Translations under genes and position numbers: made by a program
Part shown: one piece after another, positions 5,907 through 23,556 of the stretch
Numbering within the stretch: the first letter of the stretch is position 1
Layout: every line of letters starts with the position of its first letter
Notes under the pieces: model-generated
Seen by the model: only the letters and a program-made list of their open reading frames with translations
What the model was told of the DNA's origin: nothing
Databases searched by the model: none
Assembly: GCA_020318295.1 (NCBI GenBank)
Contig: GCA_020318295.1_4859.1
Source of the DNA: a phage
Reading direction: 5' to 3' (one strand)
DNA: 37,697 nt

Positions 5907-7520
5907 TCATTTCAACAGCGCAGCAGTCGTTCTTTTAATCACGTTGTTAACCGGATTGATTTTGAAACTGCCGTCTGTTGCAAACCAGTAGTTTTTCGAA
6001 CTGACCCACTTCCGATTTTCCTCGAGCGCTTCGGTTGACATCGGGCAGTTTGCTGAGCCGGTGTCACCATCGTAGTCACCACCCAAGCCCCCTAATCGGG
6101 ATGGGTGCGGTGCCATGGATTCCACAAAGGTTTTCACGGTACGGTCAGGGAAGCTAATTGCACCCTTCTCTTTTAACGTGACCCAATCGTCTTCCAGTTC
6201 ATGCAAATAGAGGGAAGAGGTGGTGGTCTCCAATCTTATGGTCGAGGAGTAAGTCGAACCGCGTCCCGTAACCGGATAACGCGTGATGAACGAGAAGTAG
6301 TCATTCCAAATATCGTAACCTGACAAATAGAGGAGTTCCGCTAAGCTCAGTCCGCGGACAAGCTTACGGTCACGTCCTTCCGGCAGGTCTTCAATATCGT
6401 AAAAGATTTTGAAGCTGCGTTTGTCCTGGTAGATTAATGCCACGTAATGGTCCGGATCAATCATCAGCGGTTTATGTCGAAGCTCGCGCGCTTCCATTCT
6501 GTTGATGAGCGTTTCGATGCCATCGTCGGTAGTGAAAAGGTCATACACCCGCCCGGAGACTTCCAGGAACTCACGCTTGAGTGTTTTGGTGTTAACGCCG
6601 TATAAGTTACCGTCCCCTGCCCGGATGTTACTGAGGTAACGTTCACGGATGTGGTATTGAGCCACAGGCAGTAATGCCTTCAGGGTTTGGTACAAACCGA
6701 TACGGGTATCCGTTGGACGAATCGCATCTTCGCGACCCATGACCTTGGAACCGGTTGAGAATGAAGACAGTACGTTACGCGTACCGTTCATTAACTTACG
6801 TGACGTCACTTTACGACGTGCAAAACCACCTTTACCGTCTTGGATGTTGAAAAAGTACATCCAGATATCATTAAAGGTTTGTTGGAGCTTCCAGCGAACC
6901 GGGTCAGTCAGTTCCGTTCGCGTACTGCGGTCGGGGATTGCACGTGCCAGAGAAATCAGACGGCGGTAGAGTCCGCCAATCTCTTCTTCTTGGTCGCGGC
7001 CATCCTGACGAATGACCAAATCACGTAATCCCGCAGGCAGAACCAGCACATAGCGGCTGAGACTGACCGGACGGAACTTATTGAAGAAATCGACTGTCTC
7101 GTCGCGACGCATCGATTCGTTGCGTCCCGGTGTCAGTTGTTCGTAGTAGCGTAGGAAGAAGTTGAAGCCGGTGTCTGCACCTTTATCACTGGGCAGAGCC
7201 GGCTCGAAGTCTTTTTCTTTCTCATTCCAGATAGCGAATCGCTTCCCGGAACAGATTTCTTCGTACAGCTGTTTCAGCTGGAACAATGCCAAACAAACGG
7301 TCGGTGAAATGATATCCAGTTTGATATCAATGTACGAGAACGTTGAGTCTCGTGCTTCGCTCCCTGTGAGGCCAAAAATTTCGGTTGAATACAGTCCTTC
7401 AGGGTGAAAGTTTTTCGTCAGTCCCTGAAAGGTGTCTGTTGTTGTAACTGGTTTTAAATGCGACACCAGGGACTTGTTGACGTTTAACAAGTAAAAGTCA
7501 ACCCAGTTTAGCTTTCTCAC
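5907..7520 (-). CDS. multisubunit RNA polymerase beta' subunit, N-terminal portion with DxDGD catalytic motif (537 aa)
   Basis: YVLVLPAGLRDLV...DG...GGLYRRLISLA resembles E. coli beta' [20 protein letters not shown]...LYRRVINRN; GKGGFARRKVTSRKLMNGTRNV resembles [28 protein letters not shown] at 6063..6077 sits where NADFDGD does. GTG start with AGGAG 9 nt upstream. Confidence 0.7.
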   Translation of the reverse strand: MRKLNWVDFYLLNVNKSLVSHLKPVTTTDTFQGLTKNFHPEGLYSTEIFGLTGSEARDSTFSYIDIKLDIISPTVCLALFQLKQLYEEICSGKRFAIWNEKEKDFEPALPSDKGADTGFNFFLRYYEQLTPGRNESMRRDETVDFFNKFRPVSLSRYVLVLPAGLRDLVIRQDGRDQEEEIGGLYRRLISLARAIPDRSTRTELTDPVRWKLQQTFNDIWMYFFNIQDGKGGFARRKVTSRKLMNGTRNVLSSFSTGSKVMGREDAIRPTDTRIGLYQTLKALLPVAQYHIRERYLSNIRAGDGNLYGVNTKTLKREFLEVSGRVYDLFTTDDGIETLINRMEARELRHKPLMIDPDHYVALIYQDKRSFKIFYDIEDLPEGRDRKLVRGLSLAELLYLSGYDIWNDYFSFITRYPVTGRGSTYSSTIRLETTTSSLYLHELEDDWVTLKEKGAISFPDRTVKTFVESMAPHPSRLGGLGGDYDGDTGSANCPMSTEALEENRKWVSSKNYWFATDGSFKINPVNNVIKRTTAALLK

Positions 7521-17576: not shown

Positions 17577-18009
17577 GTTCGATAATCACTTTTACGATAT
17601 CTTCTACCGGAGGGTAATACCACAACACCACACTGTTTCGTCCCAAGTCTTTTGGAAACGTTTGGCAATATGCAATGTCGGTGCCGAAGCGCTCAGAGAG
17701 CTTTAAAACGTTCTCTGGGAACTGACAACCACCACGCCAGTCGTGTGTATAGAGTACCTGCTGTAATAACTTCACATTAGCATCGAAGAAGTACAGATTT
17801 TCTACCGGCGCAATGTGTGGTACCGGAATTGGTGTGTCGGTGAGTACGAACTCCAAACCACCGCATTGTTCTGAACGCTCCGCTAGGAATTTCAGATGCC
17901 ATGGCATTAGACCGTGGTCTTCCCAGACGATATTGTTGACCAGTAAACGATCAGCGTATTCGTCGTAATCAACCGTGAACAGTTTCTTCGCCATCGGTAA
18001 ACGCCTCAT
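17572..18009 (-). CDS. hypothetical protein (145 aa; start may be the internal Met at 17994)
   Basis: ORF in the minus-strand block; its stop lies in the T-tract of the terminator. Confidence 0.5.
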   Translation of the reverse strand: MRRLPMAKKLFTVDYDEYADRLLVNNIVWEDHGLMPWHLKFLAERSEQCGGLEFVLTDTPIPVPHIAPVENLYFFDANVKLLQQVLYTHDWRGGCQFPENVLKLSERFGTDIAYCQTFPKDLGRNSVVLWYYPPVEDIVKVIIER

Positions 18010-18910
18010 CTTTTACAGTAAGGGAACCGTTTACTTCGATTTCAGCAGCGGTCATGTCTGCTTCTTTAACGAAGATACCGTCCGCGTTCAGGAAACCCTT
18101 ACGGTCTTTGATTTCATCCCATGCCAGAGAGAAGCACTGTTCCAGCGTCATATCGTACGCATTAGCCAGCGCATTGGCGTATTCGACCATCTGAGCGAAG
18201 TGACATTCGATCATTACCGCGTCGCTGTTCTCGAAGTGTTTATATTCGAGTTGCTTAGCCGAGTCGATGCCTGCCTGATCCCAGATATAATCAACCGCAC
18301 AAGTAAGATGGAAACGCATTTTGTGGAACAGGTAATGACTGTTCCCGGCGTGTGGTTTCTTTGAACGTGCGTCGTTGACGTATGTGCTGATATCGGTTGA
18401 GTCAAACTTAATGAGTTCCATCAAGTTAACCAGCACGACCAGAGCATCACCGATACCGTCCATGATGTAACGACGTTTGTTTTTACTGATACCGGTTGCC
18501 GCTTCACCGTCTTCTTCGTAGAGTTTGGTGGCTTGGCTATACCAGACGCCGTTATCCAGAATACCACGCGCTTTAGACCAACCCATAACGTTAGTAATAC
18601 ATTGTGGGATGGTGTACAAAGGTACGTAACGCGGACGATCAACCGTACCACGATACTCGACACCTTCCAACGTCCACGGCATTTCGAAATCATTTATTTC
18701 CAAACTCTGGTCGCCCGTGAAGACTTTACCTTCGACGTAAGTGTGACCGGTTTCACTGTTCACGCATAGGGTGTACAGTTTCTCAAAGGACCACGGTTCA
18801 ACAAACTGACGTTGGCAGAATCCAGCCAGAAGCTCATTAATCTGTGCCAGGTACTGGTTAGGTTCAACAATAACGTTATACGGAATCTGGATAATGAAAC
18901 GGTCGCCCAT
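17969..18910 (-). CDS. hypothetical protein (313 aa)
   Basis: ORF with AAGGAG 8 nt upstream of the ATG, directly downstream of a terminator hairpin. Confidence 0.6.
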   Translation of the reverse strand: MGDRFIIQIPYNVIVEPNQYLAQINELLAGFCQRQFVEPWSFEKLYTLCVNSETGHTYVEGKVFTGDQSLEINDFEMPWTLEGVEYRGTVDRPRYVPLYTIPQCITNVMGWSKARGILDNGVWYSQATKLYEEDGEAATGISKNKRRYIMDGIGDALVVLVNLMELIKFDSTDISTYVNDARSKKPHAGNSHYLFHKMRFHLTCAVDYIWDQAGIDSAKQLEYKHFENSDAVMIECHFAQMVEYANALANAYDMTLEQCFSLAWDEIKDRKGFLNADGIFVKEADMTAAEIEVNGSLTVKDEAFTDGEETVHG

Positions 18911-21231: not shown

Positions 21232-22269
21232 TTAGATAGCCACCGGTGCAGATATTTTTTCATGAGACTGATACCCAACGATCTCAAAATCTTCGAATTT
21301 ATAATCGAAGATAGATTCCGGTTTACGCTTGATGATCAGTTTCGGTAAAGGTAAAGGTTCGCGAGTCAGTTGCAGCTTGGCCTGTTCCAGATGGTTGGAG
21401 TACAGATGTACGTCGCCACCGCTCCAAACGAAATCGCCCGGCACCATGTTAACTTGCTGAGCTACCATGTGAATCAGTAACGCGTAAGACGCGATGTTGA
21501 ACGGTGTTCCCAGGAAGAAGTCTTGGGAACGTGCATACAGCTGACATGAAAGAATGCGGCGAGGTATTTCAAGTGCGTTCATCTCAACGTGGAATACTGC
21601 GTCATCTGCTACAGCTTCATTACTAAAGCGGGAATCGTTAAATTGATCTGGAAGGTTCTTTTCAAACCAATCAAGACGCTCGTCGATAGACAGCTCACGA
21701 GTGTAGAACTGAAAGAACGCATGACACGGAGCTAACGCCATTTGATCCAACTCACCCACGTTCCATGCGCTGACAATAATACGGCGACTGTCAGGATCGT
21801 TACGCAGCTGGTCAATCACCTTAGAGATCTGGTCGTGCTCTTTCAGAAGTACACGCGCATCGAACATTTGTGAACCGTCGTCCGCGTCGCCATAATCCGC
21901 GTATCCAGCATCTTGCAGTTTCTCGAGTAAAGCTGCATTTTTCTTAGGCACCAGTTTCACATCTTTCCAACGTCTCCATTGTGCACCATACAGGGGGCCA
22001 AGGTTCCCATTCTCATCTTGCCACTCCCGCCAAATGGTAACGCCGTTATCTTCCAGATATTTGGTGTTGGTATCCCCACTAAGGAACCACAACAGTTCGT
22101 GAATAATAGAACGCAGGTGGAGTTTTTTAGTCGTGACTAACGGGAAACCTTTGCGCAAATCAAAACGCATTTGGCGACCAAAGACGGAGAGAGTCCCTGT
22201 CCCAGTACGATCGCCTTTAACATGACCCTCGTCCAGAATGTTTTGCATCATCTCAAGATATTGTTTCAC
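21232..22269 (-). CDS. thyA: thymidylate synthase (ThyA family) with two insertions (345 aa)
   Basis: Near-identical blocks to E. coli ThyA: MKQYLE.MQ..LDEG...[61 protein letters not shown] (catalytic Cys), [10 protein letters not shown] (Asn that specifies dUMP), [21 protein letters not shown]. Insertions of about 36 aa (nt about 21850..21966) and about 45 aa (nt about 21555..21702). Confidence 0.9.
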
Positions 22270-22271
22270 AA

Positions 22272-23141
22272 TTATTTTCCTTTCAATAAATTCAAAATGT
22301 CTCTTAAATCATCGTTCGCACAAATGTTTACAGCGTTACCATCGAACTTAACATCAACACGAGGGTTACGATTGAACAACATTTGTTTTCTTACTATCCA
22401 CGGTTCAAAGTGCGCCTTGAGAAGCTCTTGCAGCTTTTCGTTCATAATGTCCTCCATCCGCAGCAATAGCTGCGGCATGGCGACTTCACCGTTATGTTTG
22501 GTTTGTAAATCGTTCGATGTGGCCAAAAGGCAATTTACAATAATGTCGTGAACTGACTCGTTGGTTTTGTACACCGTCTGATAGGTTTGTTTCGCCAAAT
22601 CGTCGTCGGATAACGGCAACGATGCTTTGAGCAGTTCGCCGAGCGTGCTTGTCGTTTCAGGCGTCTTAACGAGCTTACGATGGCCATTAAAAACAACACG
22701 GTCAAACTCCAGCCCGCAACGACACGCCAACAATTGATACTGTCTCATCAACTTACGAAGCAGCGCGCTATAACTCTTAGCGTCAGGTTCTGGTTCACGC
22801 AAAACAACACTAACGGTCTCGACTGCAATTAACATGAGCTGCTGCAGTTGTCCTTCTTTCGTGCCAGTTGTAGTACGAACAGACACCGCATCACTCAACG
22901 GAACGACAATATCACCGAGGTTAGAATGTGGACCGAGGTGTAGCAGCGCGGCAAATGTCCAAATCGATTCACCGATACCGGCAGCCACCTTTAAGTTATC
23001 CAGTTCATCGACACCTGCTGAGATCCTGCCGAGTGTGACGTAATACTTCACCAACTGACGTTCAGTCGCTTTCTGTTGGTAAATATCTGTCTTGCGAAAC
23101 CACTCTTCGACTGCCTGAACTTGCTGAACGATGCTAGGCAC
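22272..23141 (-). CDS. hypothetical protein (about 289 aa; ORF track extends to 23234)
   Basis: I prefer the in-frame GTG at 23141, preceded by GGGAGGAAG, which overlaps the upstream stop by only a few nt; the track's start at 23234 would overlap the upstream gene by 100 nt. Confidence 0.5.
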
Positions 23142-23556
23142 AGACTTCTTCCTCCCGATACGCGTAGCAGATTGCAAAGTTAAGCTGGCCGGTTGCGCGA
23201 GAAACGACAACGGCGATAGTCTGGTCTTCCACACCCGACATCGGTGTGCCCTGATTAACCATTTGACCTGCGGCCTTACTTACCGGACCCAGCAAACGCC
23301 AGCTGTACAGACGGCTACGTAACGCTGCGTTTTGTAAGAAAGCGGAGCCGCAATCATAGTCGACATTAAACGCTGCAAACATTGGACCACAGTCTGCCAT
23401 CGTGCCGTTTAACGGCAGCTCGCTCGTTACCACAATCTTCACAGGCTTGTCTTTGAGACGCTGTGCTAACGCTTCCCAGTTAGCGTTATTAGTGCCAGCG
23501 ATGATGGTGTTGTTCAGAAGTAACCCAACGCCTTTTTCAAACGCGATATTGTTCAT
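23134..23556 (-). CDS. hypothetical protein (140 aa)
   Basis: ORF with AAGGAG upstream. Confidence 0.5.
   Translation of the reverse strand: MNNIAFEKGVGLLLNNTIIAGTNNANWEALAQRLKDKPVKIVVTSELPLNGTMADCGPMFAAFNVDYDCGSAFLQNAALRSRLYSWRLLGPVSKAAGQMVNQGTPMSGVEDQTIAVVVSRATGQLNFAICYAYREEEVCA

Follow-up and report, generated by a model that had tools for sequence, protein, structure and literature searches.

Thymidylate synthase (TS; ThyA, EC 2.1.1.45) is a known enzyme, and its gene is annotated as such in many public genomes. In the E. coli enzyme, the segment Cys146-Tyr153 serves communication between the subunits, with Phe149 placed opposite itself across the dimer (PMC6514825). Nucleus-forming jumbo phages also encode the enzyme: the SPFM phages, relatives of SPN3US, encode dihydrofolate reductase (DHFR), TS and thymidylate kinase together (PMC6614189), a TS-GFP fusion in the Pseudomonas phage PhiPA3 is kept out of the phage nucleus (PMC9067925), and knocking down phiKZ gp235 weakly affected both plaques and the amount of chimallin (PMC12571901). 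In the literature on SPN3US, the Chimalliviridae, Goslar, phiKZ gp235 and TS insertions, we found annotation-level mentions only, and nothing on the inserts described below. Here, we analyze the thyA gene in a stretch of phage DNA of 37,697 nucleotides (GenBank assembly GCA_020318295.1, contig GCA_020318295.1_4859.1; hereafter the window), whose product combines a core close to that of E. coli ThyA with two large insertions. We consider it likely that this is a canonical phage ThyA that makes deoxythymidine monophosphate (dTMP) and carries old, phage-only inserts, which probably serve as stabilizing or docking surfaces.

A ThyA core interrupted by two folded inserts

By its sequence, the gene product is the phage's own folate-dependent thymidylate synthase. 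It matches Pfam PF00303 (E 7e-113, 376.7 bits against a cut-off of 24.3) and the PHROGs family phrog_160 (E 2.5e-117), and it exceeds the cut-offs of the NCBIfam equivalog NF002499 (435.6 bits, cut-off 405), of NF002497 (410.6 bits, cut-off 327) and of TIGR03284 (357 bits, cut-off 108). Aligned with E. coli ThyA (phmmer against the PDB), the protein falls into three blocks, in which residues 1-102, 145-191 and 240-345 correspond to E. coli residues (Ec) 1-102, 109-155 and 159-264, with 194 of the 255 core positions identical (76.1%). Between these blocks, insert 1 places 42 residues where E. coli has six, a net gain of 36, while insert 2 places 48 residues where E. coli has three, a net gain of 45; a preliminary description made from the sequence alone had put the two insertions at about 36 and 45 residues, in agreement with the alignment. 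The catalytic cysteine and the specificity asparagine that it had recognized in the core are also found, as Cys182 in the motif PCHAFFQFY and Asn258 in PFNIASY.

The active site is preserved almost throughout. In E. coli numbering, the residues kept are Arg21, Lys48, Glu58, Ile79, Trp80, Trp83, Tyr94, Arg126/127, Cys146 and His147, as well as Arg166, Ser167, Asp169, Leu172, Phe176, Asn177, His207, Tyr209 and Val262-Ile264. The four-arginine phosphate clamp is therefore complete in the window enzyme (Arg21, Arg162, Arg163 and Arg247), as is the pair Cys182-His183. The substitutions among key residues are Gln165 to Ala, Cys168 to Gln and Asp81 to Arg. In TS, Gln165 orients Asn177. Position 165 is itself variable in the phage subfamily, where it can be Gln, Ala, Met, Ile or Leu.

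We modeled the protein with AlphaFold2 (AF2) from a 44-sequence alignment, giving a mean predicted local distance difference test (pLDDT) of 94.2, a predicted template modeling (TM) score of 0.92 and no segment of low confidence. Foldseek aligns the model with E. coli TS at E 3e-45 and a TM score of 0.96 (normalized to the 264-residue target). None of the solved TS structures that Foldseek found in the PDB covers the inserts, and because the inserts are absent there, the best of them reaches a TM score of only 0.73 when normalized to the query. Insert 1 is predicted as a strand (101-108), a helix (112-120) and two further strands (124-130 and 137-145), with pLDDT 81-95 (AF2, DSSP). It is flanked by the Tyr94 helix and by the counterpart of the Ec110-121 helix, just past the variable small domain, at a site that we take to be that of the second eukaryotic insert in human TS. 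Insert 2 is predicted as four short helices (195-205, 207-212, 217-221 and 223-232; pLDDT 85-96) and stands in for the turn that joins the long strands equivalent to Ec147-156 and Ec157-169. These strands bear Cys146 and Arg166/Ser167/Asp169 and form part of the five-stranded sheet at the dimer interface. Structure prediction, which had been suggested for placing the inserts, thus gives two folded modules (pLDDT 81-96), and a location near the dimer interface, as described earlier, makes sense for insert 2, whose flanking strands belong to the interface sheet (PMC6514825; AF2). On this model, both inserts are autonomously folded surface modules in loops tolerant of length change.

Distribution of the inserts

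The inserts are not an error of assembly, which the preliminary description had allowed for, because at least 24 other full-length genome records of phages, independent of one another, and numerous metagenome contigs share the same in-frame inserts. Nor are they peculiar to this phage, being common to its enterobacterial and Pseudomonas phage relatives alike, an outcome that the preliminary description had itself listed among those that would count against its reading. All enterobacterial nucleus-forming jumbo phages in the phage collection have a ThyA of about 336-370 residues with both inserts, and no loss of either insert was seen in the enterobacterial-phage clade checked. The enzymes of Goslar, Cronobacter CR5, Erwinia phiEaH2, Asesino, Machina, Huxley and Kwan carry both at 59-71% identity, and from the SPN3US-like phages through Goslar, CR5, phiEaH2 and the Erwinia phages the two-insert ThyAs span 59-98% identity. 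Homologous segments occupy both positions in phiKZ gp235 (488 residues) and Phabio gp351 (465 residues). For insert 1, the pattern shared with these two is W-x-D-x-K/R-L/V-V/I-P-K ... G-Y/F ... D-x-R-x-V, and for insert 2 it is TRELT-V-D-ER-V ... P-K/R-R-A-I-S-C. All phiKZ-, 201phi2-1-, PA1C- and Phabio-like Pseudomonas phages have an enlarged ThyA, and the BFVD model of the 201phi2-1 TS (B3FJL1) spans the whole query, with a TM score of 0.92 (normalized to the query) and a root-mean-square deviation of 2.4.

An exhaustive profile search of 1.84 billion representatives extends this range. Among the 150 best 50%-identity cluster representatives classified together with the window protein (n = 151), 95 carry an insertion at Ec150-161, and most of these show the motif FQFY-TRELxxxER...VPxRxLSC. 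Flavobacterium phage immuto (160 kb) and numerous viral contigs in IMG/VR have the insert 2 motif as well, and the insert carriers are phage records or viral contigs. In a scan of 185,579 GTDB species genomes, no bacterial ThyA with inserts was found among the best 80 matches, all of them 783-831 nt long. On these comparisons, the inserts define an old, phage-restricted ThyA subfamily of the nucleus-forming jumbo phages of Enterobacteria and Pseudomonas, while insert 2, judged by its motif, is present beyond them in other large phages.

Several related ThyAs depart from this architecture in ways of their own. Some metagenomic ThyAs (P0139, P0126 and other long representatives) contain giant in-frame internal inserts, one of which has an I-HmuI NUMOD-like segment. 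Single-sequence hidden Markov model alignments had given such proteins apparent N-terminal extensions of 280-390 residues, as in a DHFR-TS-type fusion, but Pfam resolved these as giant internal inserts. In the phiKZ-like phages OMKO1, SL2 and PA02, gp235 is matched only over residues 1-388 and the gene is annotated thyA_1, which suggests that thyA is interrupted or split in some phiKZ-like phages, possibly by mobile elements. A second Seoulvirus-like jumbo phage lineage, syntenic with the window (222-226 kb contigs L003-L005, gene at 6001-7035), occurs widely in gut and enteric assemblies; complete genomes of E. coli and Enterobacter list it as a "plasmid" (NZ_CP173450.1; NZ_CP134650.1), and it also appears under Shigella and Salmonella names. 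Its ThyA (P0045, 344 residues) departs from the others at usually fixed core positions (LSCFYMMRSNDYLLGAPFNV, ALNPCHNYFQFY).

Evolution of the inserts within the gene

Within the inserts, a few positions are held while the rest turns over. Across 43 diverse sequences, insert 2 has four near-invariant positions, Glu197 (36/43), Arg198 (41/43), Pro236 (42/43) and Arg238 (36/43), and Thr190, Leu193 and Trp201 are conserved within the enterobacterial clade. In insert 1, Gly122 and Gly127 are conserved, and the remainder of both inserts is highly variable. The net charge of insert 2 nevertheless stays between -2 and -10 in each of the 18 enterobacterial-phage sequences.

The gene is also a mosaic. 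Of the 57 nucleotide differences between the window and SPN3US, 41 fall within 225 of the 1038 nt (binomial P 8e-16), so that residues 240-314 diverge by 18% at the nucleotide level, against 2% in the remaining gene, and are nearer to phage Lh1B; residues 106-239, with both inserts, are almost identical to SPN3US. The comparison with Lh1B gives the reverse pattern, with insert 2 differing at 31 of 46 residues and insert 1 nearly identical. Among alleles, the types of insert 1 and insert 2 assort independently, which speaks against a need for tight mutual co-evolution of the two modules. As judged from these alleles, insert evolution is rapid and related phages swap the inserts in the manner of cassettes, and the mosaic pattern means that a core metabolic gene, too, is reshuffled among co-circulating Seoulviruses. 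The ratio of nonsynonymous to synonymous substitutions is uninformative in the inserts, where sequences differ too little in close pairs and have reached saturation in distant ones, and we do not claim positive selection.

Two observations concern the core of these alleles. The window reads YARSQD where SPN3US reads YQRSAD (residues 246 and 249; region 244-247, positions 21529-21540), a change that lies within the recombinant tract and is common to Lh1B-type alleles. Codons 89 and 92 of the SPFM/SPN3US thymidylate synthase have been flagged as positively selected (PMC6614189 Table 2); they lie outside the inserts, in the core just before the Tyr94 helix, and at residue 92 the window has Pro where the P0021 and P0024 alleles have Glu.

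Proposed mechanism and role of the inserts

Canonical dTMP synthesis is by far the likeliest activity, because the catalytic residues, those binding deoxyuridine monophosphate (dUMP) and folate, and the C-terminus are kept, and the equivalog models are passed. As in E. coli ThyA, Cys182 would attack C6 of dUMP; the methylene of 5,10-methylenetetrahydrofolate would then be transferred to C5 and reduced by the cofactor hydride, yielding dTMP and dihydrofolate. In TS, the C-terminal PVAI shuts over the folate so that hydride can be transferred. A DHFR and a thymidylate kinase of the phage would close the cycle and, by analogy with the Pseudomonas relatives, ThyA would be at work in the cytoplasm, outside the phage nucleus.

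Our best guess is that the inserts are lineage-specific surface or interface modules. They may provide stabilizing or docking surfaces, either between subunits or with phage proteins of nucleotide metabolism, analogous to what has been proposed for T4 Td, with the fold and a few anchor residues kept while the remainder drifts and is swapped by recombination. The long retention, the anchors, the confident folds, the kept charge and the absence of loss in the enterobacterial clade speak for a selective advantage of some kind. The fast change elsewhere in the inserts, in turn, points either to a need for no more than the fold and a few contacts or to surfaces that keep pace with rapidly evolving partners. 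We rank stabilization or docking first among the roles, followed by near-neutral decoration, an arms-race or anti-host function and, last, altered chemistry.

By itself, the gene encodes a housekeeping enzyme already annotated in SPN3US-like phages, and it tells nothing new about DNA modification. Of wider note is a TS architecture common to nucleus-forming jumbo phages and some other large phages, which solved structures do not cover and for which we found no describing paper: two folded, phage-restricted modules are set into an enzyme that ranks among the most conserved known, and one of the two lies where strands of the dimer interface end. If these modules bind partners or link subunits, they would offer a handle on how nucleotide synthesis is organized in the cytoplasm around the phage nucleus, and their sequences would also make it simple to recognize this phage ThyA lineage in metagenomes.

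Alternative explanations

The closeness of the core to bacterial ThyA might reflect a recent capture of an enterobacterial thyA that then gained two lineage-specific insertions, and the preliminary description had leaned toward relatively recent acquisition. Identity of the core to Enterobacterales ThyA is 76-83%, similar to that among phage ThyAs, and the best bacterial matches come from Pantoea, Mixta, Enterobacter, Serratia and Aeromonas; for enterobacterial-phage cores as a group the range is 75-83% to Enterobacterales ThyA and 68-96% among the phage enzymes. At the nucleotide level, however, thyA in all 5426 of 5426 complete E. coli genomes is 60-80% identical to the phage gene, typically about 70%, and covers at most 72% of the query. 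In a neighbor-joining tree built from core columns only, with 200 bootstraps, the SPN3US and Erwinia-phage ThyAs form a clade of their own (55%) that lies beside, not nested in, Enterobacterales plus Aeromonas and outside the Enterobacterales crown (70%), the two being joined at 31%; Goslar and P0045-type ThyAs are placed elsewhere. The inserts, moreover, are homologous to those of Pseudomonas phages with distant cores, since phiKZ and Phabio are only about 53% identical to enterobacterial-phage and Enterobacterales ThyAs alike. ThyA evolves very slowly, so that 76% identity need not imply recency. We therefore regard recent capture as quite improbable. The resemblance to the host enzyme is best explained by strong constraint, under which ThyA has changed slowly, perhaps following an exchange long ago. 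A different origin for the inserts alone would be as mobile-element remnants, either degenerate inteins or read-through intron or homing-endonuclease DNA, given that phage thyA is a classic target of introns and homing endonucleases (PMC11620839). The NUMOD-like segment in one metagenomic ThyA and the split look of some phiKZ-like thyA genes fit this idea, but inserts of 42 and 48 residues that have neither the Cys/Ser/Thr nor the His-Asn junction residues do not. The smallest mini-inteins are, to our knowledge, of roughly 130 residues or more. The whole window gives no Rfam match at gathering thresholds, and so no group I intron; no repeats or target-site duplications flank the inserts, where there is just one weak inverted pair of no obvious meaning; and Pfam finds no endonuclease or other extra domain in the window ThyA. 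With overall and third-codon-position GC content (GC, GC3) similar to the core, and inserts that are modeled as integral folded parts, this is the least probable of the explanations considered.

A change in chemistry is a further alternative, in which the inserts would go with a dUMP hydroxymethylase or another non-canonical product used for thymidine hypermodification, as the preliminary description had hinted. Some phages do use TS homologs for pre-replicative hydroxymethylation (bioRxiv 10.1101/2025.08.14.668559; PMC7824862), and Gln165 is Ala in the window allele. Against this, the protein exceeds the thymidylate synthase equivalog cut-offs and keeps the folate-binding, hydride-transfer and C-terminal residues intact (Trp80, Trp83, Tyr94, Glu58, Asp169 and PVAI), T4 gp42-type hydroxymethylases match the model weakly (TM score 0.53, 12% identity), and relatives have a DHFR, which is needed only if dihydrofolate is made. 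The screen for companion genes of hydroxymethyl-pyrimidine processing, such as a 5-hmdU kinase and glucosyl- or amino-transferases, returned only MazG-like or unknown-function families (PHROGs for the nine closest neighbors and the MazG gene, Pfam for five open reading frames (ORFs), NCBIfam for three). Altered chemistry is thus very unlikely. Another possibility, which we take seriously without favoring it, is that the inserts are tolerated loop expansions with no function of their own, kept only since their removal would destabilize the fold. They sit in loops of varying length in TS, an enzyme whose small domain is highly variable and includes a 50-residue segment in L. casei and E. faecalis (PMC6514825, PMC6479881); there are three insertion hot spots among the ThyA representatives; and the mid-insert sequence is poorly conserved and replaced wholesale between close relatives. 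Mere decoration fits less well with the similar length, confident fold and four near-invariant anchors found from Salmonella through Pseudomonas phages, with an insert 2 that is acidic throughout despite its sequence turnover, or with the retention of both inserts in every enterobacterial-clade relative checked. At the other extreme, the inserts might be an ancient phage-only interaction platform, either a tether to nucleotide enzymes or to the exterior of the phage nucleus or a shield or decoy against a host factor. We think this unlikely; if true, an arms race, or gene conversion driven by homing endonucleases at this locus, would have left its mark in the cassette-like replacement of insert 2 and the recombination tracts in thyA.

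Some points weigh against the reading that we prefer, a canonical dTMP-making ThyA with old phage-only inserts acting as stabilizing or docking surfaces. Gln165 to Ala, together with Gln at 168, casts a small doubt by leaving room for a modest change in specificity. How the inserts are placed with respect to the two-fold axis and the mouth of the active site is deduced from secondary structure and the literature. The deep nodes of the core tree are poorly resolved, with bootstrap values of at most 31%, and an old chimeric origin, in which a host-like core was combined with viral inserts, is possible. The fast, cassette-like turnover of the inserts is also equally compatible with nearly neutral decoration. 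Of the initial interpretation, then, the enzyme, its residues, the sizes and positions of the inserts and the host hold, while recent capture and altered chemistry are not supported.

Genomic context

The features are listed in Table 1. Judged by nucleotide similarity and gene order, the window comes from a Seoulvirus, an SPN3US-like Salmonella/E. coli jumbo phage with an enterobacterial host, as had been proposed from the sequence: its thyA is 94-96% identical to that of SPN3US, SPLA5c, SaP7, the SPFM phages, SEGD1 and other Seoulvirus phages of Salmonella and E. coli, and the gene order near thyA is that of SPN3US gp216-239. In SPN3US, ThyA is gp229 and gp100 is annotated as thymidylate kinase in GenBank (L002:18525-19148, SPN3US_0100); the SPN3US proteomics paper, contrary to GenBank, names gp100 thymidylate synthase (PMC5694885).

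Table 1. Features of the window discussed in the text (Ec, E. coli ThyA numbering).
Feature	Positions	Strand	Description
thyA coding sequence	21232..22269	-	345 residues + stop; thymidylate synthase, SPN3US-like jumbo phage; from the ORF list, Pfam and NCBIfam
Core block 1	21964..22269	-	residues 1-102 = Ec1-102; Arg21, Glu58, Trp80, Trp83, Tyr94
Insert 1	21838..21963	-	residues 103-144, 42 residues, in place of Ec103-108; alignment and AF2
Core block 2	21697..21837	-	residues 145-191 = Ec109-155; Arg162/Arg163 (Ec126/127), catalytic Cys182 (codon 21724-21726)
Insert 2	21553..21696	-	residues 192-239, 48 residues, in place of the Ec156-158 hairpin turn; net charge -7
Core block 3	21235..21552	-	residues 240-345 = Ec159-264; Arg247, Ser248, Asp250, Asn258 (codon 21496-21498), His288, Tyr290, C-terminal PVAI
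Recombinant tract in thyA	21328..21552	-	residues 240-314; per-bin differences, binomial test
Shine-Dalgarno-like AAGGA	22278..22282	-	8 nt upstream of GTG 22269; read from the sequence
MazG-like nucleoside triphosphate (NTP) pyrophosphatase relative (distant)	22272..23234	-	320 residues, upstream neighbor; phrog_10269, weak phrog_715
MazG-type nucleotide pyrophosphohydrolase	17969..18910	-	313 residues; phrog_7855; same gene block as thyA

The gene starts with a GTG, 2 nt after the stop of the upstream gene. In SPN3US and SPLA1a, the start is annotated seven and six codons, respectively, downstream of this GTG (window 22249-22269; L001:9001-9021). The start annotated in SPN3US is probably too short, and the longer form is favored because similarity to E. 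coli ThyA begins at residue 1 of the window protein (phmmer against the PDB), a putative ribosome-binding site precedes the GTG, and phage Lh1B has an ATG at the same codon.

Two MazG-type paralogs share the leftward gene block with thyA and weakly cross-match each other. The upstream neighbor matches phrog_10269 (E 9e-112) and, weakly, the MazG-like phrog_715 (E 7.5e-4); it has no match in Pfam or NCBIfam, and its ortholog in pSal-SNUABM-04 is annotated with an NTP-PPase_SsMazG domain. The other paralog matches phrog_7855 (E 1.9e-145), with a weak Pfam MazG match under the gathering score (E 0.0019). Together with thyA, they hint at a small nucleotide-pool module, in which the MazG-like proteins might supply dUMP to ThyA. 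The slot directly upstream of thyA differs among Seoulviruses. The window and SPN3US have the 320-residue MazG-like gene there, SPLA3 has a "restriction endonuclease" and a second ORF (L174:1506-3004), neither of them with a Pfam match, and SEGD1 has only a tiny ORF (L009:1-58). A free-standing endonuclease beside thyA could drive gene conversion of thyA.

Comparison with known thymidylate synthases

The window enzyme has the fold of E. coli ThyA (PDB 2TSC, 1TYS and 1AOB) and, outside the inserts, the same length and register. E. coli ThyA is without both inserts, having a short loop at Ec103-108 and a hairpin turn at Ec156-158, and it has Gln165 and Cys168 where the window has Ala and Gln. 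Another likeness is to the Pseudomonas jumbo phage enzymes, phiKZ gp235 (488 residues), the 201phi2-1 TS (457 residues) and Phabio gp351 (465 residues), in which inserts 1 and 2 are homologous and occupy the same positions. In phiKZ gp235 and Phabio gp351, there is also a third insert of about 100 residues at the small-domain position known from L. casei, as well as a longer insert 2, both of which the window enzyme lacks. The TSs of L. casei, E. faecalis and S. aureus (315-321 residues) retain canonical chemistry despite a 50-residue folded insertion in the small domain (PMC6514825, PMC6479881), a precedent which means that a large folded insertion need not change the chemistry. That insertion lies between Ec83 and Ec89, whereas the window inserts lie at Ec102-108 and Ec155-158; since the Foldseek alignment takes 396 columns, the two kinds of insertion do not coincide.

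Among phage enzymes, T4 Td (286 residues) is, like the window enzyme, a phage-encoded, dTMP-making ThyA, although it is only about 35% identical and has no insert at the Ec155-158 hairpin, T4-like matches being about 858 nt long. The T4 td gene also has a group I intron, while the window gene has none. Small phage-specific surface segments of T4 Td have been proposed as contacts in the T4 complex that synthesizes deoxynucleoside triphosphates. The T4 gp42 deoxycytidine monophosphate (dCMP) hydroxymethylase and the phage dUMP hydroxymethylases share the superfamily fold and Cys-based activation of C6, and the member compared with our model, Acj9 gp42, aligns at the TM score and identity given above. 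The dCMP hydroxymethylases have Asp in place of Asn177, and the hydroxymethylases are without the C-terminal lid of TS. Unlike these enzymes, the window ThyA keeps both Asn258 and the PVAI terminus.

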